Source of the DNA: Ignavibacteriota bacterium
Lineage (GTDB): Bacteria > Bacteroidota > Ignavibacteria > Palsa-1295
NCBI GenBank assembly: GCA_963787835.1
Contig: CAWBEI010000002.1
Coordinates: 335,690-367,689, forward strand
Length of the DNA stretch: 32,000 bases
Direction: 5' to 3'
Below are positions 5,649-25,565 of this stretch, piece by piece. A program made the translations under genes and the position numbers. Within the stretch, counting starts at the first letter, position 1. Each line of letters opens with the position of its first letter. Under the pieces are notes generated by a model. That model made no database searches and was not told the origin of the DNA. It was given only the letters and a program-made list of their open reading frames with translations.

Positions 5649-5730
5649 TGTCATTCCCGCGAAAGCGGGAATCCGAACCCCGCCCTTGCCTTAAAGCCAA
5701 ACCTGGATTCCCGCTTTCGTGGGAATGACA
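5649..5730. repeat. 82-bp nested palindromic MITE/REP-like element (family 1, copy 1)
   Basis: Terminal inverted repeats TGTCATTCCCGCGAAAGCGGGAATCC ... GGATTCCCGCTTTCGTGGGAATGACA. Each arm contains its own CCCGC-GAAA-GCGGG hairpin. A second copy of the same length is at 25484-25565. Confidence 0.85.
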
Positions 5731-5741
5731 GAAAACCTTGA

Positions 5742-6410
5742 CTACCGCATCCGCTCCCTCGCCAATTCATAGACTCGCTCGACCTGAGCTTCGATCGTCA
5801 GACGGGTCGTATCGAGTTCAATGGCGTCCGGAGCCTTCCGAAGCGGCGAGATCGTGCGTTCCCTGTCGCGCTTATCCCGCTCCTCTATTTGTTGCCGGAG
5901 TTCTTCGAGTGGGATTTGCGTGCCAAGCCGCTCGAACTCGATTTCTCGCCGTTCCGCTCGAACGCTGGCATCTGCGATCAAAAATATTTTTAACTCCGCG
6001 TCAGGGAACACCACGGTTCCGATATCGCGGCCTTCGAGCACTACGCCACCATCGCTGCCAAGTTCGCGCTGTTTCTCCACCATCTTTGCCCGCACATCAG
6101 CAAGAGTTGAAAGCTCGCTTGCCAGAAGTGCAATATCCGGCTCCAGAATTTCGCGGGAAACATCCACGCCGTTCAACAGGATATTTCCTTTCTCGTCAAA
6201 TCCGATCTCTGCCTGAGAAAGCAGTTCGTGAACCCGCGCGGGATCGTGCCCGTGATGATCGCGGCGACGCACCATCAGAGCAAATGCGCGATACATCGCA
6301 CCCGTATTGAGATGCGTGTAGCCGAGCCGAGCCGCGACTTGCTTGGCAGTCGTGCTCTTACCGGAGGCCGTCGGGCCATCGATCGCTATGATTATTCCTT
6401 TAGGGCGCAA
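5742..6410 (-). CDS. cmk: cytidylate kinase
   Basis: 222-aa ORF with IAIDGPTASGKSTTAKQVAARLGYTHLNTGAMYRA, the P-loop plus the conserved Cmk N-terminus. It appears to start at TTG (6408-6410). Confidence 0.92.
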   Translation of the reverse strand: MRPKGIIIAIDGPTASGKSTTAKQVAARLGYTHLNTGAMYRAFALMVRRRDHHGHDPARVHELLSQAEIGFDEKGNILLNGVDVSREILEPDIALLASELSTLADVRAKMVEKQRELGSDGGVVLEGRDIGTVVFPDAELKIFLIADASVRAERREIEFERLGTQIPLEELRQQIEERDKRDRERTISPLRKAPDAIELDTTRLTIEAQVERVYELARERMR

Positions 6411-6525
6411 TGTTTTATAATAGATTCGCTAAGAAGAGGAAATGACATGAGTATGTTCCGAATCATCTAAGAATGATACCAGGTCTTGGCTCGAACAATG
6501 CATCTAATATTTTTTTTTACAAATT

Positions 6526-6657
6526 CATTTAATGAACTGTGGCGTTTCCGAGCCAATTTCGCCAATATGTCTTTTAGAAATAGGTGCCCTTTAAACGCAA
6601 TTGGGTACTGTCCTAATTAGACTTGGTTCCTAAAACGATATAGTTTTTGTTGTTAAG
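6526..6657. repeat. composite conserved non-coding module (W part 6526-6610, Z part 6620-6657)
   Basis: The W part shares CATTTAATGAACT ...(about 40 nt)... AGAAATAGGTGC with 16970-17035. The Z part (GACTTGGTTCCTAAAACGATATAGTTTTTGTTGTTAAG) matches 12788-12825 at 36/38 positions. Confidence 0.8.
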
Positions 6658-6659
6658 GC

Positions 6660-7004
6660 TTACATCCCAATGCTTCCCATAAGTTGACGCACGATGCTCT
6701 GAATTAAATTCGGAGTGACTTCATTGAGCGAAAACGGTTGACCGGCATCTTGTTCAACGATAATTTTACCTTTACGAATCGAGAGCGGGATCATCCTTGT
6801 GATAGTAGGAGACTCCGAATAGCCGGAAAAATGAATACGAAAACATCTCTCTTCCAGCCCATTTTTAGTTTCGGTAATAGTCAAGCTGCACCGATCTGAG
6901 TCGTGGATTATTTCTGCGACAATATCGGGGTTTTGTACTAACCTCATTTTAATAAGGTCGAAGGTTGGAAGCATTATCTGGTTCGCACATTCATCAAAGT
7001 TCAT
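6660..7004 (-). CDS. hypothetical protein (114 aa)
   Basis: It is the only long ORF in this interval and I recognise no motif. It is flanked by conserved modules Z (3' side) and X (5' side). Confidence 0.5.
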   Translation of the reverse strand: MNFDECANQIMLPTFDLIKMRLVQNPDIVAEIIHDSDRCSLTITETKNGLEERCFRIHFSGYSESPTITRMIPLSIRKGKIIVEQDAGQPFSLNEVTPNLIQSIVRQLMGSIGM

Positions 7005-7060
7005 ACTCTCGGAACGCCAGAGATTCGAGTGGCATTCCCATCCCCACGGGCAGGTTCGGT

Positions 7061-7092
7061 GCTTTCAGGTTTTCCGATTGAGGAAACGATAC
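7061..7092 (+). promoter_or_regulatory. conserved 32-nt leader/inverted-repeat module Y, copy 1
   Basis: GCTTTCAGGTTTTCCGATTGAGGAAACGATAC lies 26 nt upstream of the ATG at 7119. It is 31/32 identical to the reverse complement of 12703-12734 and contains a TTTCC-GATTGA-GGAAA hairpin. Confidence 0.8.
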
Positions 7093-7118
7093 GAGGAATA
7101 TTGCCGTAAGAAGAACTG

Positions 7119-7463
7119 ATGGATTATCGTGGTCAAGAAGCATATTATGATGAAAAAGGAACACTTCGCCGAAAAAGCGACGGCGTGAGGATTGTTCTCA
7201 CTCTAAAAGAAAGAGAGCAATATAAAAAAGAAGGCTATCTTTCTAACGGCGTAGAGACCGAGCCTCTTAGAGAAGAAAAATTGCAACGTCAGGGTTGTAT
7301 GCTTTTATTGCTGAAGGATAAGTCACTGAACGACAAAGAAACTGAGCGGCGCATCAGCGCATTCGCAAAACAACTTATTAGAGAGAACAAAGGCAATCCT
7401 GACTTCTGGGTCATTCGCGCCCCAGAGGACAATACACAACCCTCTCATTGGACGGTTTTATGA
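7119..7463 (+). CDS. hypothetical protein (114 aa)
   Basis: ATG-initiated ORF directly downstream of module Y. I recognise no family. Confidence 0.5.
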   Translation: MDYRGQEAYYDEKGTLRRKSDGVRIVLTLKEREQYKKEGYLSNGVETEPLREEKLQRQGCMLLLLKDKSLNDKETERRISAFAKQLIRENKGNPDFWVIRAPEDNTQPSHWTVL

Positions 7464-7684
7464 TCGTCGGATGGAGCGACATATTTGTCTAAAATCTTGG
7501 TAATCTCATCTTCTGCGGAGCATTCTAAGCAAATGGCATAGTAGGTAAGGGCGAACGACTCTTCGTTTTCATATTCTCCTTTAACCGATTTAACGACCTC
7601 AACGGTATGCTTATCGTTAGTTGTGCATTTCGTATTCGCAAATCGTTTTTTAATTTCAGGGGGAATGCGAGGGATTGTTTCCAT
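7445..7684 (-). CDS. hypothetical protein (79 aa)
   Basis: ORF convergent with 7119-7463, overlapping it by 19 nt. No recognisable motif. Confidence 0.35.
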   Translation of the reverse strand: METIPRIPPEIKKRFANTKCTTNDKHTVEVVKSVKGEYENEESFALTYYAICLECSAEDEITKILDKYVAPSDDHKTVQ

Positions 7685-7872
7685 ACAAATTCAACATTCG
7701 CTGGAGTTAAAGCATTCTTCAGGATCGAGCGCGCTTATTCGAAGCCGCTTTGCTCCATCGTGGCTTTCTTGCATAATACTCCGCACGGCGCGCCCGAAGC
7801 TCTTCGGTTCTTCGGAGGTCGTGTTTGTGTTTGGCGCGGAGTTCATTGGAACGGGTTGATCGAGGAGTCTTT

Positions 7873-8793
7873 TCATAAGGATGCTCCGGTCAATTCCTCA
7901 TACGTCAGCCGTTTGCCGAAGAGCATCGTGGCCGCCTTGATGAATCTGCCGGAGTCATTGTCCTTTCTGTTATCGTACCGGAAACCCTGTTCGTCAAGGT
8001 AGCGGTCAAGATGATAGGGTTCAACGTGGATGTACGTGCCTTTGAGGGCGCGCTTCACCAGCGACCAATAGTTCTCAATGGTATTCGAATGCGTGTTACC
8101 CTTGACGTATTCACCGCGTTTGTGATTGACAGTCGAGTGATCGTAAACGACACCGAGTGCCTTGTACGAATTCGCTTCGTCACTGTAAAGGGTTGAGCCG
8201 ACCTTCACGGTTGCAAGCACTTGATTCTGAAGCGTCCGTGCGTGAGTGTTCTCAATGACGCGCGCCTGTACTTTGCCACCCCGTTCAACGGCCCCGAACA
8301 CGATGGTCTTACCATCGCTTCCGCCACGGGATTTTACTTTGTTCGCGTGACGATTGCGCTCGGCACCGCCGAAGTAACTTTCATCTATCTCGACAGAACC
8401 CGTAAGTTTTTCCCCCGCATCCTTGGCAATACTTTCTCGGATCCTATGCCCGACATGCCATGCGCTCTTTTGTGTAATTTCTAAGGCCCGTGCTATTTCG
8501 TAGGAGCTAATTCCATTCTTACAATTAACGACCATCCACACCGCAGGAATCCATTTTGTAATGGGAATTGGCGAGTTGTGCATGACCGTCCCGGCCTTCA
8601 AGGAGAACTGCTTCTTGCAGTCCCGGCATTTGAAGGCCGGACGAGTACGCATTCCGTAGATTGCTGTGGAGCCGCACTTTATGCAGCATCGTTCACCGCC
8701 ATGCCAATAAAGCTCCGACAGGAATTCGACGCATACCACTTCCGAGGAGTAGTAGCGTACCGCTTCGAGTAGGCTTTTGGGTGTTTTGAGCAT
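7873..8793 (-). CDS. IS1595-family (ISXO2-like) DDE transposase
   Basis: 306 aa with an N-terminal zinc ribbon (CIKCGSTAIYGMRTRPAFKCRDCKKQFSLKAGTVMHNS). The catalytic region has VEIDESYFGG, LYSDEANSY and HSNTIENYWSLVKR, characteristic of IS1595 transposases. I could not identify the element ends. Confidence 0.85.
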   Translation of the reverse strand: MLKTPKSLLEAVRYYSSEVVCVEFLSELYWHGGERCCIKCGSTAIYGMRTRPAFKCRDCKKQFSLKAGTVMHNSPIPITKWIPAVWMVVNCKNGISSYEIARALEITQKSAWHVGHRIRESIAKDAGEKLTGSVEIDESYFGGAERNRHANKVKSRGGSDGKTIVFGAVERGGKVQARVIENTHARTLQNQVLATVKVGSTLYSDEANSYKALGVVYDHSTVNHKRGEYVKGNTHSNTIENYWSLVKRALKGTYIHVEPYHLDRYLDEQGFRYDNRKDNDSGRFIKAATMLFGKRLTYEELTGASL

Positions 8794-8961
8794 GATCGTG
8801 AGTTATTAGGAACGTTCCCGGTGGAAATTGGATTAAATAGAAATACCCGATCATTAATAATAATGATCGGGCAAGTTGTGGCCCAAGCCACACGATTAAA
8901 TTGTGCCAGAATTCGCGTTCTGGTAGTAGCATGATGAGTGCGCGGGGGCGTTCTCGTCATG

Positions 8962-8994
8962 TACCCGGAGTGTGATTACTCCGGGTTTTCTTTT
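8962..8994 (+). terminator. rho-independent terminator on the + strand
   Basis: ACCCGGAGT-GTGATT-ACTCCGGGT hairpin followed by TTTTCTTTTT. No annotated + strand gene lies upstream; only a hairpin-rich stretch (8800-8960). Confidence 0.6.
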
Positions 8995-9044
8995 TCCGAA
9001 TGAAGAAGCGTGGTCGATGCGGCTCATACGGAAAGAAAATCACA

Positions 9045-9126
9045 TAAAAAACCCCAAGATATTACCTGAAAAACTCGCTTGCTGGCGTTGAGTCCCGACC
9101 GAAGCCGGGTAGGTAAATCTTGGGGT
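9045..9126 (-). terminator. long compound hairpin terminator on the - strand
   Basis: On the - strand, ACCCCAAGATTTACCT pairs with AGGTAATATCTTGGGGT (one bulge). The stem encloses a CGGC-UUCG-GUCG tetraloop hairpin and is followed by TTTTTT. It lies about 165 nt downstream of the protease gene stop (9291). Confidence 0.6.
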
Positions 9127-9290
9127 CAAACCCAAAAAAGTTTCAGTTGTATCGCCAGCAAGACGATGTAGGCTTTCACCTGACTTGGTTGCTAACGTAT
9201 CATTACACTGTTCGTTTCAGTTCGCATGAAAAAAGTGGAAACTCTGAAAGCGGATTTGGGTTTCCATCGTGGCCTTTGGAACTAAATGGG

Positions 9291-10817
9291 TTATTTAGTA
9301 ATCGCCAGATTGATGTAGCTCACCATATCTCCCACCCTAACGCGGCATACATATTTTCCCGATGGGAGCGTCTCCGTGCCGAGCGAAATGGATTGTGGGC
9401 CTTCGTTTGAATAACCGTTCATAACCTCCATTATTTGTTTTCCCAGGGGATCATAAATAGCAATCTGCGTAAAGCTGGATTCTACTGTTGTAAATTTCAA
9501 GGTCATTCCACCGCTTGAAGGATTTGGGAAAACTTCGGGGTTAAACCAATCGGGCTGTTGAGGGGTGGAAACACCCAACGTCGTATCTGAATGAGTCGGG
9601 CAATAAAGTTTCGCGAACATGCAGGAATCATCGCTCCCAAGTCCGCGTGGAGCGATGTTAGGTTGCGCCTGCTTAGATCCCATCAACATCCAATATCCTG
9701 GTATGCTACTCTTACAATAATTATAGTTATTAACGCAGGTGTCTCCACGAACAATCGTATCTGGATGTAGTAACCCGAGCCAATGGCCGATCTCATGCTC
9801 GATTATTTCCTTAAAGCTGAAATCATAAAACCCTTGATTTGCCGCGCCGGGGTCTGGGGCAGGTCCCGTGTACCATCCCATCAATGGACTCTGGTGTAGC
9901 TTGTAACCAGGAATAGGCTGAAGGGCATCGTTTCCATTTTGGTAGAAGAAGCTATTTGTTGCATTGTAAGTAATAAACCGATAATTTGAGTTCGGACATG
10001 CGCCTCCATCGGGGCATCCCGGATGCCCATACGTCCATGCAACAGGATAGCCGGCTTTTTTCAATCCAGATGCTTGATAAGTTCCTTGAAAGTGAAGGAT
10101 ATTAGTGTCCGGAATTATGAGGATACAGCAGGTTGTGTCGCCAGTAAATCCGCAAATTCCAAGCCACGCATTTAGATCGGATTGAGCATCAGAACTTGCA
10201 CCACCCGTGTTCCAAACCTGATCGTAATGCACATCTGAGCCGTTGGCGTATGATATAGAGTCACTTATGTAAGTGTTGTATCTTTCTATATCGATTTCAA
10301 AGATTGAGTAATCTTCTCTATCGCAGTCATAAACCGATAATGCCTCTTCATATTCTTCGTCATAGTCATAATTATCACGATTAGGAGGAACATCTGGTTC
10401 ATGTCCATCATGCACTTGGTGGAAATCGGTATCCCATTCGTCTAACCCGGCATTATAGGTTCCGGTATCCAAGACCTCACCCGGATCGGGAATGCAGCCG
10501 GAGAAAACATCATAAGTATCTGGTAACGAAACAGGTTCTGGCGGCTCTGGAACAGGATCGGTCGGTTGATCGAATACACTCGTGTCAGGTGGAATTACAT
10601 TTACACAACCCGGTATTTTCGATTTGGAGGGTGTGTAGCTTGGTGGTGGGTCATTCGGGTTTGTCGAACATTGCACGCCTTGAGCACCTGTAACGAAACA
10701 AAATACGTAAGGGAAACTCTCATTCCCGCATGGAATAGGGCAATGTATCGCCTGTGCCAACCCAATAGACGAAACGAAAAGGGAAGCAGCGATTAGAAGA
10801 AGTGGAAAAGACTTCAT
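9291..10817 (-). CDS. secreted zinc metalloprotease (metzincin, M43-like) with a T9SS-type C-terminal sorting domain
   Basis: It has a signal peptide (MKSFPLLLIAASLFVSSIGLAQA) and the zinc site HEIGHWLGLLH (HExxHxxGxxH). The C-terminal ~85 aa (FPNPSSGGMTLKF...GKYVCRVRVGDMVSYINLAITK) resemble a T9SS CTD. Confidence 0.8.
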   Translation of the reverse strand: MKSFPLLLIAASLFVSSIGLAQAIHCPIPCGNESFPYVFCFVTGAQGVQCSTNPNDPPPSYTPSKSKIPGCVNVIPPDTSVFDQPTDPVPEPPEPVSLPDTYDVFSGCIPDPGEVLDTGTYNAGLDEWDTDFHQVHDGHEPDVPPNRDNYDYDEEYEEALSVYDCDREDYSIFEIDIERYNTYISDSISYANGSDVHYDQVWNTGGASSDAQSDLNAWLGICGFTGDTTCCILIIPDTNILHFQGTYQASGLKKAGYPVAWTYGHPGCPDGGACPNSNYRFITYNATNSFFYQNGNDALQPIPGYKLHQSPLMGWYTGPAPDPGAANQGFYDFSFKEIIEHEIGHWLGLLHPDTIVRGDTCVNNYNYCKSSIPGYWMLMGSKQAQPNIAPRGLGSDDSCMFAKLYCPTHSDTTLGVSTPQQPDWFNPEVFPNPSSGGMTLKFTTVESSFTQIAIYDPLGKQIMEVMNGYSNEGPQSISLGTETLPSGKYVCRVRVGDMVSYINLAITK

Positions 10818-10856
10818 TGTTTGCTCCTTGTGGTTTTGGGAAGTGAATATGAACGA

Positions 10857-11903
10857 TTATGGATGGAGAATATTATAGATTCTCGCGCGAAGTCTTGACT
10901 TCCAGACCGCAACCGTTAGACCACCAGAAATGGAGGCACCAAGTCCGAAATCGTCGTTAGGATCAACCACATGACCGCTTACGACTCTATACATCGCTCC
11001 TTGATTTCCAAAGACACCCCAATAAGGTTGAATGCTGAAATAGCCATTGGCGGTATCAATTCCAATTCCTGCGATTCGAAGGAACACGATGTATTCTCCT
11101 CCCGGCCTGATCCACCATCCGGTCGAATCAGACAAAGCAGGCGAAAAAGGCATTTCATCACCTGCAATTGCACTTGCCCATTCGGGTGAATATTCAAATT
11201 GAATACACGCACCACTATCAGCGCGAACTGCATACGTTGGCCAAGTTGAAGCATAGCTCATGGTTGTAATCTCATTGGATTTCCGGTGAGTGTGCATGTC
11301 TTCGCCGATACAGAGTGGAATTTTTTGTCCCTTGATTTCATCAAGGATTGTGGAATTAACCAATACTATGTGTGGGGTAATGTTATCTGACGAGTTATAC
11401 TTGACGATGGTATCCCCGATAGTCACGTCCGCGATAATATCGGAAGCAAGAATAAAACCTGTACGACCGGTATCGCCTATACCATTTCCAATTTGATTAG
11501 CTAATATTGGAATTGAGTTACCAGGGTTACCTTTATAGTGCCAAGAATAATCTGGGTGCCCTCCAAGAGGCCATGAACTGATCTCCCATTGATATAATGA
11601 TAACGGATTATCGTCACTAACTTTGTAAAGCATCTCGGCAAGGAACGTCATCGTGTCATCGTGCCCAAGATTCCCGATCCATTTGTTGATCAAGTTCCAT
11701 TGCGTTGAGCGCATAAGTTCATCGGCCCAAAGGTATGCGCTTGCCACGTCGGAAGGTTGACTATCATATAGTGGTGGGACGGTCGTGAGAAGTGGGAGGC
11801 TATACTTGATTAAACCTGGATAATTCGGCCCCGTTTGGCTTCTCACAGCAGGTGCGGCAAAAAAACCTGCCCAAAGAAAGAGGATGAACATGATTCGTTT
11901 CAT
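10857..11903 (-). CDS. hypothetical secreted protein (about 348 aa), upstream partner of the metalloprotease
   Basis: The ORF extends to 11945. The Met at 11903 gives MKRIMFILFLWAGFFAAPAVRSQ, a signal peptide. There is a 39-nt gap to the protease gene on the same strand. I recognise no family. Confidence 0.6.
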   Translation of the reverse strand: MKRIMFILFLWAGFFAAPAVRSQTGPNYPGLIKYSLPLLTTVPPLYDSQPSDVASAYLWADELMRSTQWNLINKWIGNLGHDDTMTFLAEMLYKVSDDNPLSLYQWEISSWPLGGHPDYSWHYKGNPGNSIPILANQIGNGIGDTGRTGFILASDIIADVTIGDTIVKYNSSDNITPHIVLVNSTILDEIKGQKIPLCIGEDMHTHRKSNEITTMSYASTWPTYAVRADSGACIQFEYSPEWASAIAGDEMPFSPALSDSTGWWIRPGGEYIVFLRIAGIGIDTANGYFSIQPYWGVFGNQGAMYRVVSGHVVDPNDDFGLGASISGGLTVAVWKSRLRARIYNILHP

Positions 11904-12248
11904 AAAAACCCTTCCAGAAATGAATATTTGAAGTATGAAATTCAACTAACAGCACAAAGATACAACACTTTTTCCATCAAGTTTTAGATTTGATTTTCCG
12001 AATTGCAGGAGAATAGTAGGGTATTTGCAGGTGCTTTTTTCAAATGAAATGGGCGTTATCGTGGCTCTTTTCAACGGTTCATCGTGCATGATCAATTATT
12101 ATGGAGGTTCTTATGATAATCGTGTTGCGAAGCATATTTTGTAAGAAAGCAACGATGGAGTAAGGAGGATAGAATCGGTGTTCGAAAGAAAGTCCGATGC
12201 TCACATGCCAATGAAAAGCAACGGACTTCACCTCAAACAAAAATCATA

Positions 12249-12455
12249 ATGCTGAATGTACCGAAAACACTACTAAAAGAATTCGACGATATTATGAAAG
12301 CAAGCAAATGTGGTAATGACCGCTCCCACGTTATTTACGGAGATATAAACTGGGTTGTACGCGATGCGGCTGGCCTAAATCGTTACGATTGGTATATTAG
12401 ATGTAGCGAGAATGGGTGTTCCTTCACGGATCATGGTACTATCTGGCGGCCTTGA
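12249..12455 (+). CDS. hypothetical protein (68 aa)
   Basis: ATG ORF whose 3' end overlaps the convergent 12375-12677 ORF by 81 nt. One of the two may be shorter or spurious. Confidence 0.3.
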   Translation: MLNVPKTLLKEFDDIMKASKCGNDRSHVIYGDINWVVRDAAGLNRYDWYIRCSENGCSFTDHGTIWRP

Positions 12456-12677
12456 ATCGAGGGGTAAATGAACTTCATTCCATTCTTCATTGGTTTGAGG
12501 CATAACATCGAAAAGCGGATCGTCTTTGAATTTTTCAACAATGTACTCGATAAATTCTTGATCTTTTGGACATTGCAATACCGCACCCGTGTGATAAGGA
12601 TTCCCTCGCTCGGTGAATCGTGTTTCCCTCAGACGAAAATAGATGGCAACGTATTCTTTTTGTTCATCAGAAATCAT
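12375..12677 (-). CDS. hypothetical protein (100 aa)
   Basis: The ATG lies 25 nt downstream (on the - strand) of Y module copy 2. This is the same spacing as for the ORF at 7119, which supports a real start. Confidence 0.5.
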   Translation of the reverse strand: MISDEQKEYVAIYFRLRETRFTERGNPYHTGAVLQCPKDQEFIEYIVEKFKDDPLFDVMPQTNEEWNEVHLPLDSRPPDSTMIREGTPILATSNIPIVTI

Positions 12678-12702
12678 AATTCTACTTAAGGTAACGCCGC
12701 TT

Positions 12703-12734
12703 GTATCGTTTCCTCAATCGGAAATCCTGAAAGC
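12703..12734 (-). promoter_or_regulatory. conserved 32-nt leader/inverted-repeat module Y, copy 2
   Basis: The reverse complement reads GCTTTCAGGATTTCCGATTGAGGAAACGATAC, 31/32 identical to 7061-7092. Weaker similarity continues to the start codon. Confidence 0.8.
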
Positions 12735-12787
12735 GGCGTAACTTTATTTGGAAACCTCTGGTTGATTCTAATATATTAGTGCCATTT

Positions 12788-12825
12788 GACTTAGTTCCTA
12801 AAACGATATAGTATTTGTTGTTAAG
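12788..12825. repeat. conserved non-coding module Z, copy 2
   Basis: GACTTAGTTCCTAAAACGATATAGTATTTGTTGTTAAG matches 6620-6657 at 36/38 positions, in the same orientation. As with copy 1, it abuts the 3' end of a small - strand ORF. Confidence 0.8.
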
Positions 12826-13069
12826 AGGTTTTCGCTTCAGCCATCACAAAAACTCGATGACGGTAATTACCTTGTTCGCCTTCTTGGAAAAGACAGTGAT
12901 TAACGCGGGAGATTATGTAGTCCATCTTGCTATGATTAAATTCTTCACCGACTGATGGAATGACCGGTGCATGGTTGAGTGGGTATTCGCACTCGAACTC
13001 ATACATAATCTGACCGCCTTCACGGAGAACGTATTGCACGGCGTATGTTACGCTTTTGATTGAATCCAT
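12821..13069 (-). CDS. hypothetical protein (82 aa)
   Basis: ORF flanked by module Z (3' side) and module X (CTCGGAACGCC at 13093-13103, 5' side). This is the same layout as 6660-7004, but the protein shows no obvious similarity to it. Confidence 0.45.
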   Translation of the reverse strand: MDSIKSVTYAVQYVLREGGQIMYEFECEYPLNHAPVIPSVGEEFNHSKMDYIISRVNHCLFQEGEQGNYRHRVFVMAEAKTS

Positions 13070-13198
13070 TGTGTTGTTGTTTCCTTTCGACCCTCGGAAC
13101 GCCTTAAATTCGTGGCTCGTTCATGTCTCCCGAATGCGTTATTATCATCGAATATGGCGTTGAGCCACACTCCTGAAATTATTCACAATTAAAACAAT

Positions 13199-13447
13199 AT
13201 GTCTATGCAAATTAAATTCAACCTTACGGGCAAATCGAACGGCATTAAAACTTACGATGTAAAGAGCGGAGAGGCTACTCTTACCACCGCAAGAAGATTG
13301 CCGGGTGTAACGGGCTATGAAATCATCAATCCCCAAAACAACGAAGCAAAACAGGGGTTGGCAGGGGAACTCTTACGTGAGTTCTTCCCAGACCTACGGG
13401 GCGCTGCTTTAGAGATTGAAGATCAGGACGGCATGGCCATTATGTAG
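13199..13447 (+). CDS. hypothetical protein (82 aa)
   Basis: ATG ORF divergent from 12821-13069, followed by a strong terminator. No recognisable motif. Confidence 0.45.
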   Translation: MSMQIKFNLTGKSNGIKTYDVKSGEATLTTARRLPGVTGYEIINPQNNEAKQGLAGELLREFFPDLRGAALEIEDQDGMAIM

Positions 13448-13458
13448 GGATGTTCAGA

Positions 13459-13484
13459 GAAGGGCGGCCCAATGGCCGCCCTTC
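13459..13484. terminator. bidirectional rho-independent terminator
   Basis: GAAGGGCGGCC-CAAT-GGCCGCCCTTC hairpin followed by ATTTATT. It lies between convergent genes ending at 13447 (+) and 13487 (-). Confidence 0.75.
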
Positions 13485-13486
13485 AT

Positions 13487-14179
13487 TTATTGTAACACAG
13501 TATCCCATCCCCACGCACTGTTCGCAATCCCTGCCATTTGAGCCGGAGTGCAACCGATCGAGGAATGAAAGCGCATGAAATTGTAATGATAGAAGTGAAG
13601 ATTCACTGCGGCTCGTAGGTTATCGAGCTTCTTGCTCCAAGCGTTTGTCAGCCTTGTCAGTCGCCTCAACCCCATACGCATCGTGAGGTTTTGCCTCTCG
13701 ATGTAGCTGGTGGAAATATCTTCTACCAGTGGTGCGCCGAATATGACTCGTAGCGTTACTCCGACCAGACGGGCGGGTGAGTAACGACGCTCCCCAATGT
13801 ACGCCTCGGAATACTTTTTGTGAACTTGTCCGTAATCAATGGCACTCTTTCCATAGACCTTGTAAATCGCACTCACATAAGCATTCCAGGCATCGGTGCT
13901 GAGTTGGTAGCGGGTTTCGATGCGATCTCGAAGCTGTTCGAGAAGCTTCATAGCACTCCACCCATCACGCTTGCCAACATAGAATGCTGGTACGAGCTTG
14001 CTATCTGCATCAATGGCAACGAAGGTGTAAGCGTCACCATATTCCGCTTTATCAGCTAACGGATCTACACGTTTCTGTTTCTTTCCCACGTATCCCCAGA
14101 CTTCATCGAGCTGTATCCTTGGTAGTGGCTCAGTTTGGGAACTTTCGATATTTTTATACTGAATTATGTTTATGAACAC
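13487..14179 (-). CDS. IS1-family DDE transposase, catalytic domain only (lacks the N-terminal HTH; probably a truncated copy)
   Basis: It has DEVWGYVGKK, FVAIDADSKL, LSTDAWNAY and ERQNLTMRMGLRRLTRLTNAWSKK, which match the IS1 InsB pattern (DEqWgYVG / TDgw..Y / ERhNLnLRq..aRL.R...sFSKS). It aligns with residues ~64-284 of the neighbouring 284-aa copy. Confidence 0.7.
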   Translation of the reverse strand: MFINIIQYKNIESSQTEPLPRIQLDEVWGYVGKKQKRVDPLADKAEYGDAYTFVAIDADSKLVPAFYVGKRDGWSAMKLLEQLRDRIETRYQLSTDAWNAYVSAIYKVYGKSAIDYGQVHKKYSEAYIGERRYSPARLVGVTLRVIFGAPLVEDISTSYIERQNLTMRMGLRRLTRLTNAWSKKLDNLRAAVNLHFYHYNFMRFHSSIGCTPAQMAGIANSAWGWDTVLQ

Positions 14180-14369
14180 ACAAAAGATCGAAGTCGGCGA
14201 TATGGTGAAATTGAAAAACGGCGCAACGGTATTAATGTCCGTTCACGAATTGAACGGACATGGGATAGAATGCGATTGGTTAGATAACGAGAATAGATCG
14301 CAAAGACAGACCTTTGCACCTGCCCAACTTATCCGTTTAACCGATTCCCAAAATAGTCAACGAGAATGA
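14166..14369 (+). CDS. DUF2158/YodC-like small protein
   Basis: IEVGDMVKLKNGATVLMSV...GIECDWLDNENRSQRQTFAPAQL fits the YodC pattern (V.vK.GGP.M.V....v.C.W.d......F....L). Confidence 0.6.
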   Translation: MFMNTQKIEVGDMVKLKNGATVLMSVHELNGHGIECDWLDNENRSQRQTFAPAQLIRLTDSQNSQRE

Positions 14370-14523
14370 GTTGCTCCGTTATGAAGGCACCTTCTTGGAG
14401 TTCCCCGTTTTTGCTGAACCATTGGCAAATCCAATGATCTCCTGAGCCTTTGCGATTAACGCTCATTATTGGAGTGCCCTGAATGAATCCAAGATGGACT
14501 AAAGAGCCGGGTTTTATTTCCAT
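14329..14523 (-). CDS. DUF2158/YodC-like small protein (paralog)
   Basis: IKPGSLVHLGFIQGTPIMSV...HWICQWFSKNGELQEGAFITEQL fits the same pattern. It is convergent with 14166-14369, and the two overlap by 41 nt at their 3' ends. Confidence 0.55.
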   Translation of the reverse strand: MEIKPGSLVHLGFIQGTPIMSVNRKGSGDHWICQWFSKNGELQEGAFITEQLILVDYFGNRLNG

Positions 14524-14553
14524 GATTGTAATAGAATTATGGTTATGAAATAG

Positions 14554-14582
14554 AACGGGCTGGGGTGAAGTCCCAGCCCGTT
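14554..14582 (-). terminator. hairpin terminator downstream of the IS1-type transposase gene
   Basis: AACGGGCTGGG-GTGAAGT-CCCAGCCCGTT hairpin, 14 nt after the stop at 14596, with a T-rich tract following on the - strand. Confidence 0.55.
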
Positions 14583-14595
14583 TGCGTTAACACGC

Positions 14596-15450
14596 TTAGT
14601 CAACCGTCAAATCCCGTGTGTCAAGCAGGTCAACCAAGTCACCAATACTCCAAAGGTGATTCGTGAGTCCCGCCTTCATTGCAGGGGTCATTCTAAGGGA
14701 CTGGTGAACCCTCACGAAATTGTAGTGCATGAAGTGCAAAGCGATTGATGCGATATGATGCTCAACGCTTTTCGAGAACCCATTCGTGAGCCGGGTAAAA
14801 CGGCGCATTGACATTCTCATTGTGAGGTTTTGACGCTCAACGATTGATGTAGAAATGTGATCGGCATTCGGATTTCCGAACTTCGGCTGTTTCTCAATGC
14901 TAATAACTTCACCGGGGCTGTATCGCACGTCTGGCGAGTTGCCAGCACCTTTGCCATATTTCTTTACAAGCATTGCATAATCTACACCGTTGACGCCGAA
15001 CGACTCACGAACGGCGGTAAAATAATTTGCATGTGCGTCCGTTGTCAACTGAACGCGGTTAGCGAGACGGCTCGCTACATCACTCATGAACATATAGGCG
15101 TACTCTCCGTCACGCCGTCCTACGAGCCATGAAATGATTAATTTGGAATCTGTATCAATGGCAGTCCAAGTCCACTGGGAACCAACATTGCCGGAAGCTC
15201 TCTCACCGTCCGTGCAATTAGCGTCTTTCTTTCCTACGAAGCTCCAAATCTCATCGGCCTCAACACGTTGCGCCGTGACACCCTTAACATTCTCATCGTG
15301 GAACTTCTCACACGCCGCACCTAAGTCAAGAAGGAGCTTAGAAATGGTATTCCGCGACACGTCAACCATGCGCGAAATCGCACGGATGGAATTGCCCTCG
15401 ACAAGTGCCGATACGATCTGAATTTGTTTGTCTCTGTTTAGCTTGTTCAT
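14596..15450 (-). CDS. IS1-family transposase (full length, HTH + DDE domain)
   Basis: 284 aa with an N-terminal HTH (IVSALVEGNSIRAISRMVDVSRNTISKLL). It also has DEIWSFVGKK, WTAIDTDSKL, LTTDAHANY and ERQNLTMRMSMRRFTRLTNGFSKS. Confidence 0.8.
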   Translation of the reverse strand: MNKLNRDKQIQIVSALVEGNSIRAISRMVDVSRNTISKLLLDLGAACEKFHDENVKGVTAQRVEADEIWSFVGKKDANCTDGERASGNVGSQWTWTAIDTDSKLIISWLVGRRDGEYAYMFMSDVASRLANRVQLTTDAHANYFTAVRESFGVNGVDYAMLVKKYGKGAGNSPDVRYSPGEVISIEKQPKFGNPNADHISTSIVERQNLTMRMSMRRFTRLTNGFSKSVEHHIASIALHFMHYNFVRVHQSLRMTPAMKAGLTNHLWSIGDLVDLLDTRDLTVD

Positions 15451-15781
15451 GATAACTTAAACGGGTTACCCTAAGCATAAGTTTCAGTTTGTTTATTATT
15501 CTTCAAACAAAATAGCATTCGTTAAGAAACCCGCGCCGGAACAATCCCGGCGCGGGTATGGTTAGTATAACCACGAGAGAAGCCGCCCGCCCGCAAAAGC
15601 AAACGGCTCCCCCTCCGTAACGCAAAAGCGTTACGCCTTTCACGGTAATCGTAAAAAGGGTGCTGGTGAAGCCACTAAAGGCTCTAACCGATTCCACGAA
15701 GTAGAAAGCGACAGGAATCAGGCCACCAGCAAAATCAATATTAGGGGCTAATTTCGCCGTAGGAAGCGATTTTAGCCCTTT

Positions 15782-16237
15782 TTATTCATCTTGTTTCGCT
15801 AAATTCCATTCTTTTAACCAGATTAAGTCGCCCTGACGCACGATTCTATCATCTTGTCCAACGCCGATAGCGAAGTTTCGGAATTCAAAAGTCTTGTTTC
15901 CGCTTCCCTTATAGCCGTTTTTAACGAGGTGGTCGTATGCTTTCCTGAGAGAGTATTTGGCTGTTTTCTGTATTTTTAATAGCGCATAGGTCGCATTCGA
16001 TGCCGTCATGCCAGTATAGAGTCCGGGCGACGGTAGATCGCCCTCATCCTCTTCATTCTCGGAAGCATCCTGTTCATCTTCATTTTCATCCGAAATCTCA
16101 ATAAATTGTAGGAGTTCATCCGCCACGCCGGGTTTTAAGAATGAGGCAAGCCGATCATTCTCTTCCTTCAAAATCTCAATTTTTCCATCATTTTCAGCGA
16201 TTTTAGCCCTAATTTTGCTCTCTGAAAAGGTTATCAT
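15782..16237 (-). CDS. hypothetical protein (coiled-coil N-terminus, acidic linker, C-terminal globular part)
   Basis: The ORF is open to 16303, which would abut the tRNA, so the Met at 16237 (MITFSESKIRAK...) is the more plausible start. I recognise no family. Confidence 0.5.
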   Translation of the reverse strand: MITFSESKIRAKIAENDGKIEILKEENDRLASFLKPGVADELLQFIEISDENEDEQDASENEEDEGDLPSPGLYTGMTASNATYALLKIQKTAKYSLRKAYDHLVKNGYKGSGNKTFEFRNFAIGVGQDDRIVRQGDLIWLKEWNLAKQDE

Positions 16238-16306
16238 GATTTTCTCTGAATTATTTTTTGATGTTCTCGGTTCTATGGTTGCTACAAAATGCAAAACAGC
16301 CATTAG

Positions 16307-16383
16307 TAGCGGGGCGGGGGATCGAACCCCGCTCCTCTGGATCGAAAGTCCAGTGACCTACTGCCAAGTTAGTCTATCCCGCT
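16307..16383 (-). tRNA. tRNA, anticodon UUC (Glu) by manual folding; atypical
   Basis: The - strand reads AGCGGGA-TA-GACT-AACTTGGCAGTA-GGTC-A-CTGGA-CTTTCGA-TCCAG-AGGAG-CGGGG-TTCGATC-CCCCG-CCCCGCT-A. That gives a full cloverleaf with a canonical T-loop and U33. Atypical features are an A1:U72 pair, an A7/C66 mismatch, a 12-nt D-loop, G37 and no encoded CCA. Confidence 0.7.
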
Positions 16384-16643
16384 GTTGAACTTAAAGGAAT
16401 TGACCGAGTAAGCCGCCAAGCTTTTACCCGGTCTTTTTCGTTTAAGTGCACCCAACTAACCTTAACGGGTTCGAAAAGATTCATTAGTTAAATGGAAATA
16501 ATGTAGTTAAAATTTTAACGCCTCATTTCAGCAACAACAACTCGAAGCGTAAGACGTAGCTCAATACAGTTTTCAGCGCGTCAGATAAGGACGGAATCGA
16601 CCCGAACGCGCCTGTATGACAATGAATAATTCCCACCACAGAT

Positions 16644-16877
16644 TCAATCTGTTTTCTTCTTCCACCGGGCTTTAGCCGCTTTTTTAGCAATCTCAGACCG
16701 CTTCTCGGCACTTAGACGGGTCGCCCGAAGCTTTCCGCCCTCAGAACCCTTTTTTACGAATACTTCGCGGGGAATGGCTGTTTCTTCCTCGGTAGGCTCT
16801 ATTTGACCCGTTGCATATTGCATGATCTTAAAAGCGCGTTGGTTTGGGTCACGGGGTAGTTTTTTGGGTTTTATCAT
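16644..16877 (-). CDS. hypothetical small basic protein (77 aa)
   Basis: ATG ORF. Its C-terminus (GGKLRATRLSAEKRSEIAKKAAKARWKKK) has a motif common in small proteins of mobile elements. A hairpin lies directly upstream of the start. Confidence 0.5.
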   Translation of the reverse strand: MIKPKKLPRDPNQRAFKIMQYATGQIEPTEEETAIPREVFVKKGSEGGKLRATRLSAEKRSEIAKKAAKARWKKKTD

Positions 16878-16969
16878 AACCCCTTAACGTTGCTTAGGGG
16901 GTAAGCATTGCTATAAAAAGTATAAAACACGAAACAATGGTTCCGAAAATGAGCCACTACCTGAATTGT

Positions 16970-17046
16970 CATTTAATGAACTCACCTCTTTCTTTCATGA
17001 ACTTATGCAATATTTGTTCTTCCAGAAATAGGTGCTCTTAATACCA
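16970..17046. repeat. conserved non-coding module W, copy 2
   Basis: CATTTAATGAACT (16970-16982) and AGAAATAGGTGC (17024-17035) occur in the same order, orientation and spacing as at 6526-6587 (54 vs 50 nt). Scattered matches lie between them and after them. Confidence 0.7.
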
Positions 17047-17102: not shown

Positions 17103-17359
17103 CTCGGAGGCAGACGGCTCAAGCCATGCGGTGTAGCCTTGACCTTTAGGTCACAGTGTGATTTCTTTGTGCTCCGCGACCGTGGCCTGAAGGTCACGGC
17201 TATGCCGCTTCTTTCATTGGGGCGTGATTTGATCTGAGCCAATCATCGAAACCATCACACGAATCACATAAATCATAGTTCAGACTCGGAGGCGGACGAC
17301 GCAAGCCGAGCAGTGTAGACGTGACCTACAGGTCACGGTATAAATTCTTTGCGCTCCGG
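17103..17359. repeat. two direct copies of a ~76-nt REP-like unit (17103-17179 and 17285-17359)
   Basis: Both copies read CTCGGAGGC(A/G)GACG.C.CAAGCC...GTGTAG.C.TGACCT..AGGTCAC.GT...TTCTTTG.GCTCCG. Each contains a TGACCT-nn-AGGTCA palindrome. Confidence 0.8.
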
Positions 17360-17501: not shown

Positions 17502-17585
17502 TCCAGCCTCCCGCTCCGTAGGAGCGCAATATTTGTAGCCCCCGGTTTCAACCGGGGGTTGAGGAGGGCACAGGAATCATAAGCT
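17502..17585. repeat. REP-type hairpin set on the 3' flank of the Y1 transposase gene
   Basis: The hairpins are CGCTCC-GTA-GGAGCG, CCCCCGG-TTTCAA-CCGGGGG and GCTCC-GGA-GGAGC. The stretch 17519-17560 is an inverted repeat of 18110-18150 (TTTGTAGCCCCCG...CGGGGGTTG.GGAG). Confidence 0.85.
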
Positions 17586-17601
17586 CCGGAGGAGCGGCAT
17601 A

Positions 17602-18069
17602 TCACCCCAGCGCGGTAAAATCGAACAAGTATCGTTCATCGTATGGAATACCAAACGCTTCGAGCAGCGCAATATACTCCTCACGGAATGTATGCTTTTT
17701 ATGATGCGCTTCCTGATTCTGAATGTACGCGATGACATGGTCTAATTGGGAACGCGAATAGGAGAATGCGCCAAAACCCTCCTGCCAACAAAAATGCCGC
17801 GTCATCCACGACTGCTCGTTCAGCCAGAGCGTTGAACTCGCCTTGATGTGCTTGACAAGATCCGAGATCGATTGATCGGGCTTCAAGCCAACCAGAATGT
17901 GGATATGATCCGGCTCGTTTTCAATTGCAATGAGTTTATGTTTGTGATTTTGAATGATACCCGTAATGTATTTTTGAAGTTCCTCTTTATGCTCGCGTGG
18001 GATGAGGTTTTCACGACCTTTGACAGCAAAAACAAGATGAATATAAAGTTGTGTGTAGGTATTGGCCAT
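17602..18069 (-). CDS. IS200/IS605-type Y1 (HUH) transposase, REP-associated (RAYT-like)
   Basis: 155 aa with YTQLYIHLVFAVKGRENLI, the HUH motif (PDHIHILV) and the tyrosine region (GFGAFSYSRSQ). No tnpB is present, and the gene is flanked on both sides by symmetric hairpin repeats. Confidence 0.85.
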   Translation of the reverse strand: MANTYTQLYIHLVFAVKGRENLIPREHKEELQKYITGIIQNHKHKLIAIENEPDHIHILVGLKPDQSISDLVKHIKASSTLWLNEQSWMTRHFCWQEGFGAFSYSRSQLDHVIAYIQNQEAHHKKHTFREEYIALLEAFGIPYDERYLFDFTALG

Positions 18070-18083
18070 TTGGGTGATATTAC

Positions 18084-18193
18084 GCTCCTACGGAGCTAAG
18101 GGGTATTATTCGTGCTCCGCAACCCCCGATTAAAATCGGGGGCTACAAAGATTAGGCTCCTAATGGAGCCATGTAATATTCCGCTCCTGGAGC
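18084..18193. repeat. REP-type hairpin set on the 5' flank of the Y1 transposase gene
   Basis: The hairpins are GCTCC-TAC-GGAGC, CCCCCGAT-TAAA-ATCGGGGG, GGCTCC-TAAT-GGAGCC and GCTCC-T-GGAGC. They mirror the order of hairpins on the other flank. Confidence 0.85.
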
Positions 18194-18320: not shown

Positions 18321-18356
18321 ACCACCCCCCAGCCCCCTCCTTGAAAAGGAGGGGGT
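18321..18356. repeat. G/C-tract palindromic repeat (family 2, intergenic copy)
   Basis: ACCACCCCCCAGCCCCCTCCTTGAAAAGGAGGGGGT contains a CCCCCTCCTT/AAGGAGGGGG hairpin. It lies 35 nt upstream of the recA start, and a near-identical copy is at 26432-26467. Confidence 0.8.
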
Positions 18357-19479: not shown

Positions 19480-19518
19480 ACCGGGATTTATGAGATGAAT
19501 GGGATGTTTGGGATGGGT

Positions 19519-20493
19519 ATGAAACGATATCTTTTCATAATAGCAATTTTCGCATCATCCTGCTCGTCGAGTTCGACCTCACCAGGATCGGCTCCAAGCT
19601 ATGGTTCGGGAGAGTTTGGTTTCACTGTGAACGGCCAGACCGTGGATCGTATCGGGGATGATAAAGGTACGGCCGCTTCGGCGACAATTGCAAGCAATTC
19701 TTGGCTAACAATATCACTCACATACCCCGGTGAGCTACGAGGTTATGCAATGAATGGTGTAAACATAAGCCTGAAAATGTGGCAATTACGCACGGGCACT
19801 CTTGAAGTGAAAGGCAAATATAATCCTGTAACGCCGCAAGATTCAAATTGCGCAATTCCTTCGCTGCAGTATGTCGGTGTGGACGAATCAGTAGTTAGTA
19901 CCTACCCGCAAGGGAGTGTGACTATAACGAAGATAGATACTTTGAATAACCTTGTCAGTGGTAGATTCCAATTCATTATAGACGATGCACCACTTCCTTA
20001 CGATACCGTTACCAATGGTTTCTTCAATGATGTTCCAATCATTACGGGTGGCGGAGGTTTTGCTGGATCTCTGTCTGGAATTCGGAACGATGACAATAAT
20101 GGGGTATATCGCGACGACTCATTTCATTCCCCTAAAAATGGGATTGCATCAATAACATGTTACAAAGATGCTGGAACGAAAAATTTAGAAATTCAGGCCA
20201 ATGTTTATTATCCTGACGCAAGCTCTACCTATTTTAACATCACGCTGTACAATGCACAAGACGGATATTTCCCGTTTACCGGATACAGCGGAGGCGCATT
20301 CGGACTTTTTTCAGACAGTAATGGGGCGGATGGTGGCTTTTTCTCTGGTGGCATAACCATCACTAAATTTGATACTGTAAATCACCGATTTTCTGGATCA
20401 TTTAGCATCAATGCATCAGGTGGTGCGGGAGGGGTCACCTTCAATTCAACGTTCCAAGGCACAATCGATAGCGTCCGTTGGTATGATCTTTAG
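19519..20493 (+). CDS. hypothetical lipoprotein with an internal two-domain duplication
   Basis: MKRYLFIIAIFASSC is a signal peptide plus Cys. Two halves end in related segments (GSVTITKIDTLNNLVSGRFQF and GGITITKFDTVNHRFSGSFSI). The ORF is open from 19495. Confidence 0.6.
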   Translation: MKRYLFIIAIFASSCSSSSTSPGSAPSYGSGEFGFTVNGQTVDRIGDDKGTAASATIASNSWLTISLTYPGELRGYAMNGVNISLKMWQLRTGTLEVKGKYNPVTPQDSNCAIPSLQYVGVDESVVSTYPQGSVTITKIDTLNNLVSGRFQFIIDDAPLPYDTVTNGFFNDVPIITGGGGFAGSLSGIRNDDNNGVYRDDSFHSPKNGIASITCYKDAGTKNLEIQANVYYPDASSTYFNITLYNAQDGYFPFTGYSGGAFGLFSDSNGADGGFFSGGITITKFDTVNHRFSGSFSINASGGAGGVTFNSTFQGTIDSVRWYDL

Positions 20494-20581: not shown

Positions 20582-20607
20582 ATTTTCAAAAATTGGAGAA
20601 TATAAAA

Positions 20608-21012: not shown

Positions 21013-21094
21013 TCGGTATCCCATGTTTTGATTTTGTATTTGTGCTTTCTTTTCTTCCATTTTTTATTTCTTCAACCATTGCCGCTTTATCCTT

Positions 21095-21629: not shown

Positions 21630-21650
21630 GAACGCAATCCTATCCTTGCC

Positions 21651-25483: not shown

Positions 25484-25565
25484 TGTCATTCCCGCGAAAG
25501 AGGGAATCCAGATCTTGAATGTCATCTCATTTCGGGTCTGGATTCCAGCTTTCGCGGGAATGACA
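25484..25565. repeat. 82-bp nested palindromic MITE/REP-like element (family 1, copy 2)
   Basis: TGTCATTCCCGCGAAAGAGGGAATCC ... GGATTCCAGCTTTCGCGGGAATGACA starts 2 nt after the stop codon at 25482. It has the same length and termini as 5649-5730 but a different central spacer. Confidence 0.85.

Follow-up and report, generated by a model that had tools for sequence, protein, structure and literature searches.

Integrons combine an IntI-type tyrosine recombinase, an attI site and the promoter Pc with promoterless cassettes, which are lined up head-to-tail in one orientation; their attC sites are imperfect palindromes of 57-141 nucleotides (nt) that carry RYYYAAC and GTTRRRY cores and fold as hairpins. 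In T4-type phages, the promoter-early stem-loop (PeSL) elements (Arbiol et al. 2010, PMC2839356; Comeau et al. 2014, PMC4122927) are intergenic promoter cassettes that extend from a stop to the next start codon beside orphan open reading frames (ORFans) and mediate gene replacement (PMC2839356). Here we describe a locus in the chromosome of an Ignavibacteriota bacterium, contained in a stretch of 32,000 nt (assembly GCA_963787835.1, contig CAWBEI010000002.1, positions 335,690 to 367,689 of the forward strand; hereafter the window, in which all coordinates are given). On balance, we read this locus as an islet of small, mostly orphan genes, in which unrelated open reading frames (ORFs) share two putative promoter modules, X and Y, as well as a 3' module, Z. 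The modules are arranged in two units, and what sets these units apart coincides nearly exactly with the ORF, from its start to its stop.

The islet lies between cmk (5742-6410) and tRNA-Glu (16306-16383)/recA, contains three transposase genes and two genes for proteins secreted via the type IX secretion system (T9SS), and is broken up by IS1595- and IS1-like insertion sequence (IS) elements. Por_Secre_tail domains suggest that the organism possesses a T9SS. Units 1 and 2 are separated by 6 kb, and each has a promoter-like module directly 5' of an ORF plus a divergent partner gene. In unit 1, X1 (7005-7042), ORF1 (6660-7004, 114 amino acids, aa) and Z1 (6616-6657) follow one another on the minus strand, while Y1 (7052-7118) and ORF2 (7119-7463, 114 aa) are located on the plus strand and diverge from X1. 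ORF3 (7445-7684, minus strand, 79 aa) is convergent with ORF2 and overlaps it. In unit 2, the minus strand carries X2 (13090-13127), ORF4 (12821-13069, 82 aa), Z2 (12784-12825) and, after 40 nt, Y2 (12678-12743) followed by ORF-B (12375-12677, 100 aa), which lies downstream of ORF4; ORF5 (13199-13447, plus strand, 82 aa) diverges from X2, and a strong intrinsic terminator (13459-13484) comes after it. ORF1, ORF2, ORF4 and ORF5 each score best in their own frame when judged with a codon table trained on the housekeeping genes of the window. ORF-B is also called as a gene in the Logan contig L006; this contig and L005 stem from the same organism (99.98% identical) and hence provide no independent module copies. 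A first-pass annotation had listed ORF1, ORF2, ORF4 and ORF5 together with the repeats X and Z. All four ORFs are present, recomputation reproduced the coordinates and identities of both repeats, and their relative placement is the same in both units, with Z adjoining the stop and X the start region of ORF1 and ORF4.

The locus resembles the PeSL cassettes in that short intergenic modules, here with putative promoters, reach from the stop of a small ORFan to the next start and are common to unrelated ORFs, and in that gene replacement would be explained by recombination among copies. As in PeSL, the modules are associated with ORFans (ORF2, ORF4 and ORF-B). The interval formed by Z2 and Y2 (12678-12825) corresponds to a cassette from the ORF4 stop to the ORF-B start that carries a putative promoter motif resembling those of extracytoplasmic function (ECF) sigma factors, and Y2 forms a stable stem-loop. 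However, the stem-loop is not conserved: a 9-bp GC-rich stem encloses the core of Y2 and is absent from Y1 (fold z-scores of -3.96 for Y2 versus +1.76 for Y1), and Z is unstructured. Moreover, in unit 1 no intact Y follows Z1. PeSL elements belong to phages, where they cluster in hyperplastic regions and mostly 5' of ORFans, have a conserved stem-loop that acts as a terminator or attenuator, use sigma-70 and amount to ~50 copies of a single composite motif, whereas the present locus is part of a cellular chromosome, has ECF-like promoter motifs and comprises three modules with two copies each in 32 kb. Neither mini-circles nor exchanges were observed. A phage origin was not detected by PHROG, by IMG/VR scans with the Y core, X, Z and the ORF1 family, all of which returned no matches, or by BLAST of ORF5, ORF-B and the unit 1 DNA against phages and plasmids. 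The locus is not a member of the PeSL family, which is the closest described case.

Module X was recognized by comparison of positions 7005-7027 with 13090-13112, which are identical at 19/23 positions and share the exact core CTCGGAACGCC. It is longer than the first-pass annotation gave, extending over ~38 nt (7005-7042 / 13090-13127), and forms an imperfect palindrome. By sequence alone, X is marginal over chance, as 5 of 100 shuffles reach three one-mismatch hits. We accept it as real because of its position and because independent copies are found 5' of ORF1 homologs in other metagenomes. That is, aagTGAACGAGCCTTGAATCCTAGGCGTTCCGAGGGTATG precedes an ORF1 homolog in locus L007 (JGI 3300085342), and tgCGAACGAGGCTCGATTCTCAGGCGTTGCGGAGGGTATG precedes another one in two ENA soil assemblies (L009 and L010). 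When X1, X2 and the L007 copy were combined into an nhmmer model, it detected the L009/L010 copies, which had not gone into it, with an E value of 2.4e-4, and it revealed no additional copies in the window or the fetched loci. A further locus (L008), which encodes a 44% ORF1 homolog, has neither X nor Z and carries an ordinary terminator instead. The module ends with ...CGTTCCGAGRGT or ...GGCGTTCCGAG(A/G)GT, and the ATG comes immediately thereafter in ORF1, L007 and L009. In unit 2, a 20-nt stretch with the Shine-Dalgarno-like sequence AAAGGAAAC is interposed between X2 and the ATG of ORF4, as would be expected if a different ORF had been fused to the module. In both soil assemblies, a frameshift splits the ORF1 homolog (positions 73-424) into ORFs of 67 aa and 69 aa; this homolog may be a pseudogene, yet its X-like upstream module is intact.

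Two further similarities around X were considered and discarded. An X-like sequence, CTCGGAAACGCC, at 6540-6553 is inverted relative to X1, as if the two delimited an invertible segment; it has no partner in unit 2, there is no invertase, and the alignment score is not significant. Likewise, a 13-nt match (TCCCATCCCCACG, 7036-7048 / 13502-13514) is at chance level for a self-comparison of 32 kb.

On the strand of the gene at the ORF1 side, the four distinct copies of X (X1, X2, L007 and L009) all read (G/T/C)GAA(C/T)-N17-CGTT, and the ATG follows after 8 or 9 nt except at X2. In X1, GGAAT (7038-7034) and CGTT (7016-7013) are followed by 8 nt and the ATG at 7004. X2 has TGAAC (13123-13119) and CGTT (13101-13098) and then a 28-nt leader up to the ATG at 13069. 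The copy in L007 likewise combines TGAAC with CGTT, and that in L009 combines CGAAC with CGTT, in all cases across N17. Promoters recognized by ECF sigma factors have boxes about 16-17 nt apart; they are marked by AAC at -35 and CGT at -10 (PMC8103513), and the sigma-H/sigma-E consensus is GGAAC/GGAAt-N17-18-cGTT, with some promoters located 0-1 nt from the start codon (PMC10012870). X thus matches ECF (group 4) promoters in the -35 box, spacer and -10 box in four copies, and Y and a site at an IS1-like transposase gene do so with GGAAAC and GAAAC, respectively. X differs from such promoters in being palindromic, with the motif on both strands, and conservation reaches into the spacer and the Y core. 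We lean towards regarding X and Y as ECF-sigma-type promoters that abut start codons. Specifically, X would be a palindromic promoter of ~34 nt with (G/T)GAA(C/T) at -35, a 17-nt spacer and CGTT at -10. As the C of CGTT would be at about -12/-13, transcription is predicted to start at or beside the A of the ATG, which would yield a leaderless mRNA.

Y, a third module that had been missed in the first-pass annotation, was found by aligning 7052-7144 (plus strand) with 12743-12652 (minus strand), which are 73% identical over 93 nt (E 4e-10). A perfect 22-mer within Y, TTTCCGATTGAGGAAACGATAC, occurs twice in the window and not at all in shuffled sequences; the core of Y1 reads TTTCAGGTTTTCCGATTGAGGAAACGATAC. 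Y1 ends at the ATG of ORF2 and Y2 at the ATG of the unrelated ORF-B. In Y1, GGAAAC (7082-7087) is followed by N17, CGTA (7105-7108), 10 nt and the ATG at 7119, and in Y2 GGAAAC (12713-12708) is followed by N17, CTTA (12690-12687), 9 nt and the ATG at 12677, a fit made by eye only. Y would be a second promoter of equal geometry, GGAAAC-N17-C(G/T)TAAG, placed 9-10 nt from the ATG. The same geometry recurs at the IS1-like transposase gene (15450; GAAAC-N17-CGTT, 9 nt to the ATG) and, by a relaxed pattern only, at ORF3 (GAAT at 7717-7714, N17, TGTT, 8 nt to the ATG). The strict pattern GAAA?[CT]-N17-CGT[TA]-N7-11-ATG occurs six times in the window as compared to 0.33 +/- 0.55 times in shuffled sequences, and three of the six matches are real gene starts of the islet, namely those of ORF1, ORF2 and the IS1-like transposase at 15450. 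Promoter sequence and geometry would explain why X and Y are conserved independently of the coding sequence. The other three matches (25120-25158, 17895-17932 and 3055-3019) have a common GAATG start. The ATG at 25156 is an in-frame internal Met codon of the exonuclease/GIY-YIG/UVR gene (23722-25482), and its use would yield a C-terminal product of 108 aa.

Since X is palindromic (GGAACG...CGTTCC), it may be bidirectional and fire also towards the divergent gene. The opposite strand of X reads G(G/C)AAC-N17-C(G/A)TT, namely GGAAC-N17-CATT on the plus strand of X1 and GGAAC-N17-CGTT on that of X2, where it is directed at ORF5. In L007, the motif is directed at a divergent gene 23 nt off; the divergent intergenic space of this locus measures 55 nt in all, ~40 nt of which are occupied by X. 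The arms of the palindrome vary without compensation, as L009 has GTTGC while GAAC is kept, which argues against a selected RNA or DNA hairpin and for separately constrained -35 and -10 boxes.

Module Z had been reported to be identical at 36/38 positions between 6620-6657 and 12788-12825; this holds, and the similarity extends to 39/42 when 6616-6657 and 12784-12825 are compared (self-blastn E 5.8e-8). A central 19-mer occurs exactly twice in the window and in none of 100 shuffles. Neither the X nor the Z repeat is a product of chance. On the minus strand, Z1 reads CTTAACAACAAAAACTATATCGTTTTAGGAACCAAGTCTAAT. Z starts with CTTAACAAC, and the TAA within it terminates ORF4 (12823-12821) as well as the L007 ortholog of ORF1; in ORF1 itself, a 1-nt difference places the stop two codons further upstream. 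Window positions 6662-6480 have a diverged ortholog in the sequence 3' of the L007 gene. Z clearly marks the 3' joint of the replaced segment. Z and Y both contain AAACGATA...TTAAG, at differing spacing. No genuine match to the Z 19-mer exists in GTDB species genomes (one hit) or JGI metagenomes (three hits), as all hits lie in unrelated sequence; the three JGI hits sit in a frame translating GTYYYIVLGT, and the likeness ends within 19-23 nt. The first-pass annotation had proposed a search of metagenomes for both repeats; Z has no real match there, and X was found 5' of ORF1 homologs in two other lineages when the contigs encoding these homologs were fetched.

The proteins encoded between and beside these modules had been described as dissimilar, and they are: BLASTP with E<=100 produced no alignment for ORF1/ORF4, ORF2/ORF5 or ORF2/ORF-B (for ORF2/ORF5 a BLASTP result only), and profile and predicted-fold comparisons agree for ORF1/ORF4. 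ORF1 is a member of a small, conserved family of proteins with no assigned function. An exhaustive HMMER search of 1.84 billion representatives identified its relatives P0011 (49%), P0012 (44%) and P0018; large Ig/cadherin-repeat proteins among the hits are probably compositional. When all six translated frames of the window were searched, without filters, with a hidden Markov model (HMM) of this family, ORF1 was the sole match, and hhalign of the family against ORF4 gave a probability of 0.04%. The AlphaFold2 models of ORF1 and ORF4 have moderate confidence and differ from each other. That of ORF1 shows a helix, three to four strands and a helix (predicted local distance difference test score, pLDDT, 67; predicted template modelling score, pTM, 0.65), and that of ORF4 is all-beta (pLDDT 66). 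A Foldseek comparison of both models with the PDB returned nothing below E 0.1. ORF1 and ORF4 are not diverged homologs, as judged from BLASTP, HMM, hhalign and predicted folds, and a plain segmental duplication is thereby excluded for this pair; remote homology of the paired proteins, revealed by profile or structure comparison, had been named beforehand as the finding that would speak for such a duplication. ORF2 and ORF4 have no relative besides themselves among 5.8 billion clusters. Relatives of ORF3, ORF-B and ORF5 were sought by cluster look-up and in family libraries only, and ORF5 has no relatives detectable in this way. The small ORFs have no hits in Pfam, NCBIfam, PHROG or PADLOC, which leaves the suggested toxin/immunity identity without backing, and PADLOC recognizes no defence system.

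We propose that the locus is a mosaic of regulatory modules, in which regulatory DNA has been duplicated and recombined and ORFs have been exchanged between a promoter and a 3' flank that begins at the stop codon. General recombination rather than a dedicated cassette recombinase would do the shuffling, as at the phage PeSL cassettes. The X module of L007 and its diverged orthologous 3' flank indicate that X-ORF1-Z is the ancestral arrangement of the ORF1 locus. As Z1 and Z2 are 93% identical and the flank in L007 is far more diverged, Z2 appears to be a recent intragenomic copy rather than a sign that whole units share ancestry. X2, in turn, is identical to the X of L007 at 29/34 positions and to X1 at only 24/34 (read from the alignment). 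Thus X2 is nearer to the L007 copy than to X1, while Z2 is near Z1, pointing to differing histories of the modules and to no single duplication event. If this reading is correct, nature offers here, in compact form, a case of regulatory DNA serving as plug-in sockets for orphan genes, and replacement of an ORF from promoter to stop would be a route by which new genes of cellular genomes come under regulation that is already in place. A further prediction is that an uncultured lineage uses an ECF-type promoter that is leaderless and possibly bidirectional. No new recombination machinery is revealed, and with two copies per module the evolutionary claim is anecdotal. A more far-reaching version, according to which X, Y and Z are joints of recurrent ORF-shuffling in a cellular chromosome and a bacterial counterpart of the phage PeSL, strikes us as improbable. 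The same low expectation attaches to its corollary that palindromic leaderless ECF-type promoters and a stop-anchored 3' module act as portable sockets, at which unrelated orphan genes would be exchanged time and again in an uncultured lineage with a T9SS.

Several points weigh against the mosaic of promoter and 3' modules. The assignment of promoters is based on consensus and geometry, and the strict pattern was written after the sites at ORF1, ORF2 and the IS1-like gene had been seen. When the ATG constraint is dropped, the short motif occurs seven times in the window as compared to 3.9 +/- 1.8 times in shuffles and is not clearly enriched. The -10 element of Y2 is CTTA and not CGT. There is no GGAAC-N17-CGT motif upstream of the ECF sigma gene of the window (25700-26308), hence no cognate sigma factor is identified; we infer promoter activity, leaderless starts and the involvement of a sigma factor from the motifs. 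Recombination between modules is likewise deduced, from two copies per module, and exchange was not observed. Finally, Z is not explained by this reading. Terminator and promoter scans found no terminator hairpin in Z, and Rfam yielded no match at gathering and permissive thresholds, which also applies to X and Y. When 6600-6670 and 12770-12835 were folded, neither strand adopted a stable structure (z-scores of 0.0 to 0.3). The plus strand of Z2 reads TTGACT-17-TAGTAT, a weak sigma-70-like match (9/12) antisense to ORF4, and Z1 fails the promoter scan. Z could be an intergenic spacer or a joint, possibly also an antisense promoter.

The ECF sigma gene of the window (Sigma70_r2 and r4_2, 202 aa; region 25700-28791) overlaps the start of a gene for an 828-aa protein with a T9SS sorting domain, and no recognizable anti-sigma gene lies between the two.

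Instead of promoters, X and the Y core may be operators of a dimeric transcription factor with the half-site GGAAC/GTTCC, defining one repressor or activator regulon. Both are palindromic, X as GGAACG-N15/16-CGTTCC and Y as TTTCC-N6-GGAAA, and X resides in divergent intergenic regions, a common location of operators. The perfect conservation of the Y core spans 22-30 nt and goes far past the needs of a -35 box; its inner palindrome falls within ~25 perfectly conserved bases upstream of the -35 box. As an account of the modules we nevertheless consider this unlikely. The 17-nt spacing and the 8-10 nt to the ATG recur at ORF3 and the IS1-like gene, whose sites are not palindromic, the modules agree exactly with the ECF consensus, and no DNA-binding domain was detected in the neighbouring ORFs (Pfam/NCBIfam). 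The two readings are not exclusive, as an operator can overlap a promoter. Within the promoter reading, too, the conserved segment of Y exceeds what a sigma factor needs, and an overlapping regulator site is probably present there.

Excludons are long antisense transcripts that span divergent genes and were described in Listeria. In an excludon-like arrangement, Z would sit at the 3' ends of ORF1 and ORF4 as a promoter that fires antisense to them and whose transcript becomes the mRNA of ORF2 or ORF5, so that the divergent genes are expressed reciprocally. The organization fits hypothetically: the genes are divergent, transcription from Z would oppose one gene and run along with the other, Z lies upstream of the plus-strand ORF in both units, and ORF5 ends in its strong plus-strand terminator. 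Besides the motif in Z2 quoted above, the plus strand of Z1 reads TTAGAC-16-TATAGT, and a TATAGT/TATATT hexamer is found antisense to the 3' flank of the ORF1 homolog in L009 and L007. However, the promoter features of Z are weak: apart from the failure of Z1 in the promoter scan, L007 has no credible -35 box, and the hexamer, whose distance from the stop varies (~ -1 to 17 nt), carries little information in AT-rich DNA. We regard such a circuit as quite unlikely.

That X, Y and Z are dispersed repeats akin to miniature inverted-repeat transposable elements (MITE) or to repetitive extragenic palindromes and bacterial interspersed mosaic elements (REP/BIME), with an incidental association with ORFs, appears improbable as well. 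Such families are present in many genomic copies, MITEs with terminal inverted repeats and target-site duplications and REP palindromes with a cognate RAYT. The window does hold other palindromic repeats (5649-5730/25484-25565 and 18321-18355/26432-26466) and a Y1 transposase resembling REP-associated tyrosine transposases (RAYT). On the other hand, inspection revealed no terminal inverted repeats or target duplications around X, Y, Z, X+Y or Y+Z, and within the 32 kb the copies are confined to the islet. Unlike what is expected from random insertion, the distance between X and the ATG is invariant in three lineages, and Z begins exactly at stops.

In the first-pass annotation, X and Z had been taken for the borders at which a new gene-cassette or hot-spot system recombines by a dedicated, uncatalogued mechanism. 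The part of this claim that stands is the presence of conserved non-coding flanks around unrelated ORFs, with boundaries at stop and start, and ORFs precisely replaced between a 5' and a 3' flank, as well as an X with differing cargo (the ORF1 family and ORF4), are what a cassette system would produce. The mechanism finds no support, and we consider it very improbable. Integrons, too, have variable small ORFs with a conserved 3' element, but Z measures 42 nt, is unfolded and lacks the attC palindrome and the R''/R' cores, with no complementary pair of cores on inspection; X and Z share no common core sequence; each ORF has an upstream promoter-like module of its own; and the orientation is mixed, no array is present, and the 32 kb contain just two copies of each module. 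As noted before, neither integron core sites nor a recombinase are seen: scans of nearly all plausible ORFs of the window (Pfam/NCBIfam) gave no intI, Phage_integrase or recombinase domain, and the only enzymes of this kind are the IS1595, IS1-like and IS200-like (Y1) transposases. In GTDB species genomes, JGI metagenomes and IMG/VR, scans for Z gave nothing beyond the chance coding hits. A promoter role, finally, accounts adequately for X. A simple segmental duplication whose coding sequences later drifted apart is hardly credible, as the shared X-ORF-Z order with a divergent partner is outweighed by flanks that are 71-93% identical around ORFs of different length without BLASTP, six-frame HMM or hhalign similarity, by differing predicted folds (alpha/beta versus all-beta), and by identity levels that differ among the three modules, with Y rearranged relative to Z.

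Units 1 and 2 are separated by the IS1595 transposase gene and two genes for T9SS proteins, which are flanked by a 79% inverted repeat (7745-7785 / 12126-12168). This repeat resembles a coding remnant, with IMQESHDGAK in a 61-aa ORF (7691-7876, minus strand) as compared to IL*ESNDGVRR, which has an in-frame stop. IS1595 and its cargo may represent one composite insertion; that this insertion split once-adjacent units is speculation. The islet as a whole is bracketed, from cmk to past tRNA-Glu, by a weak direct repeat (6525-6596 / 16969-17044; 66%, exact blocks TCATTTAATGAACT and AGAAATAGGTGC). Contig L006 (10,468 nt), which derives from a second sample, corresponds to window positions 6511-16979 and has both ends at these repeats. 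They could mark island boundaries or a presence/absence branch of the assembly graph; there is no integrase at them, and k-mer arithmetic does not exactly fit a simple deletion variant.

Additional repeats are found outside the units. A palindromic element of 82 nt (TGTCATTCCCGCGAAAGCGGGAATCC ... inverted copy) occurs at 5649-5730 and 25484-25565, downstream of genes, and has a REP/BIME-like look. The IS200-like, RAYT-like Y1 transposase gene (17602-18069) is flanked by inverted repeats of ~95 nt (17513-17607 / 18072-18169) that hold a CCCCCGG...CCGGGGG hairpin, and a 74-nt direct repeat (17103-17176 / 17285-17358) is located just upstream. A G/C-rich hairpin element, ACCACCCCCCAGCCCCCTCCTT...AGGAGGGGG, lies just 5' of recA (18321-18355) and within the 5' part of the gene for the 828-aa protein (26432-26466). 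Three tandem genes of ~140-158 aa (20593-22070), which have no Pfam hits and lie between recX and an unannotated 332-aa ORF (19495-20493) that is itself downstream of recA, form a local array of paralogs with a DNA similarity of 60-73% (20703-20847 / 21205-21346 and 21197-21354 / 21750-21907). Finally, a 21-nt tandem repeat (GAAGAACAACCGGTTAGTCCG) at 29789-29872, with four consecutive units as read from three overlapping copies of 42 nt, gives a family-2 glycosyltransferase of 684 aa a recurring EEQPV(S/T)P motif near its N terminus.

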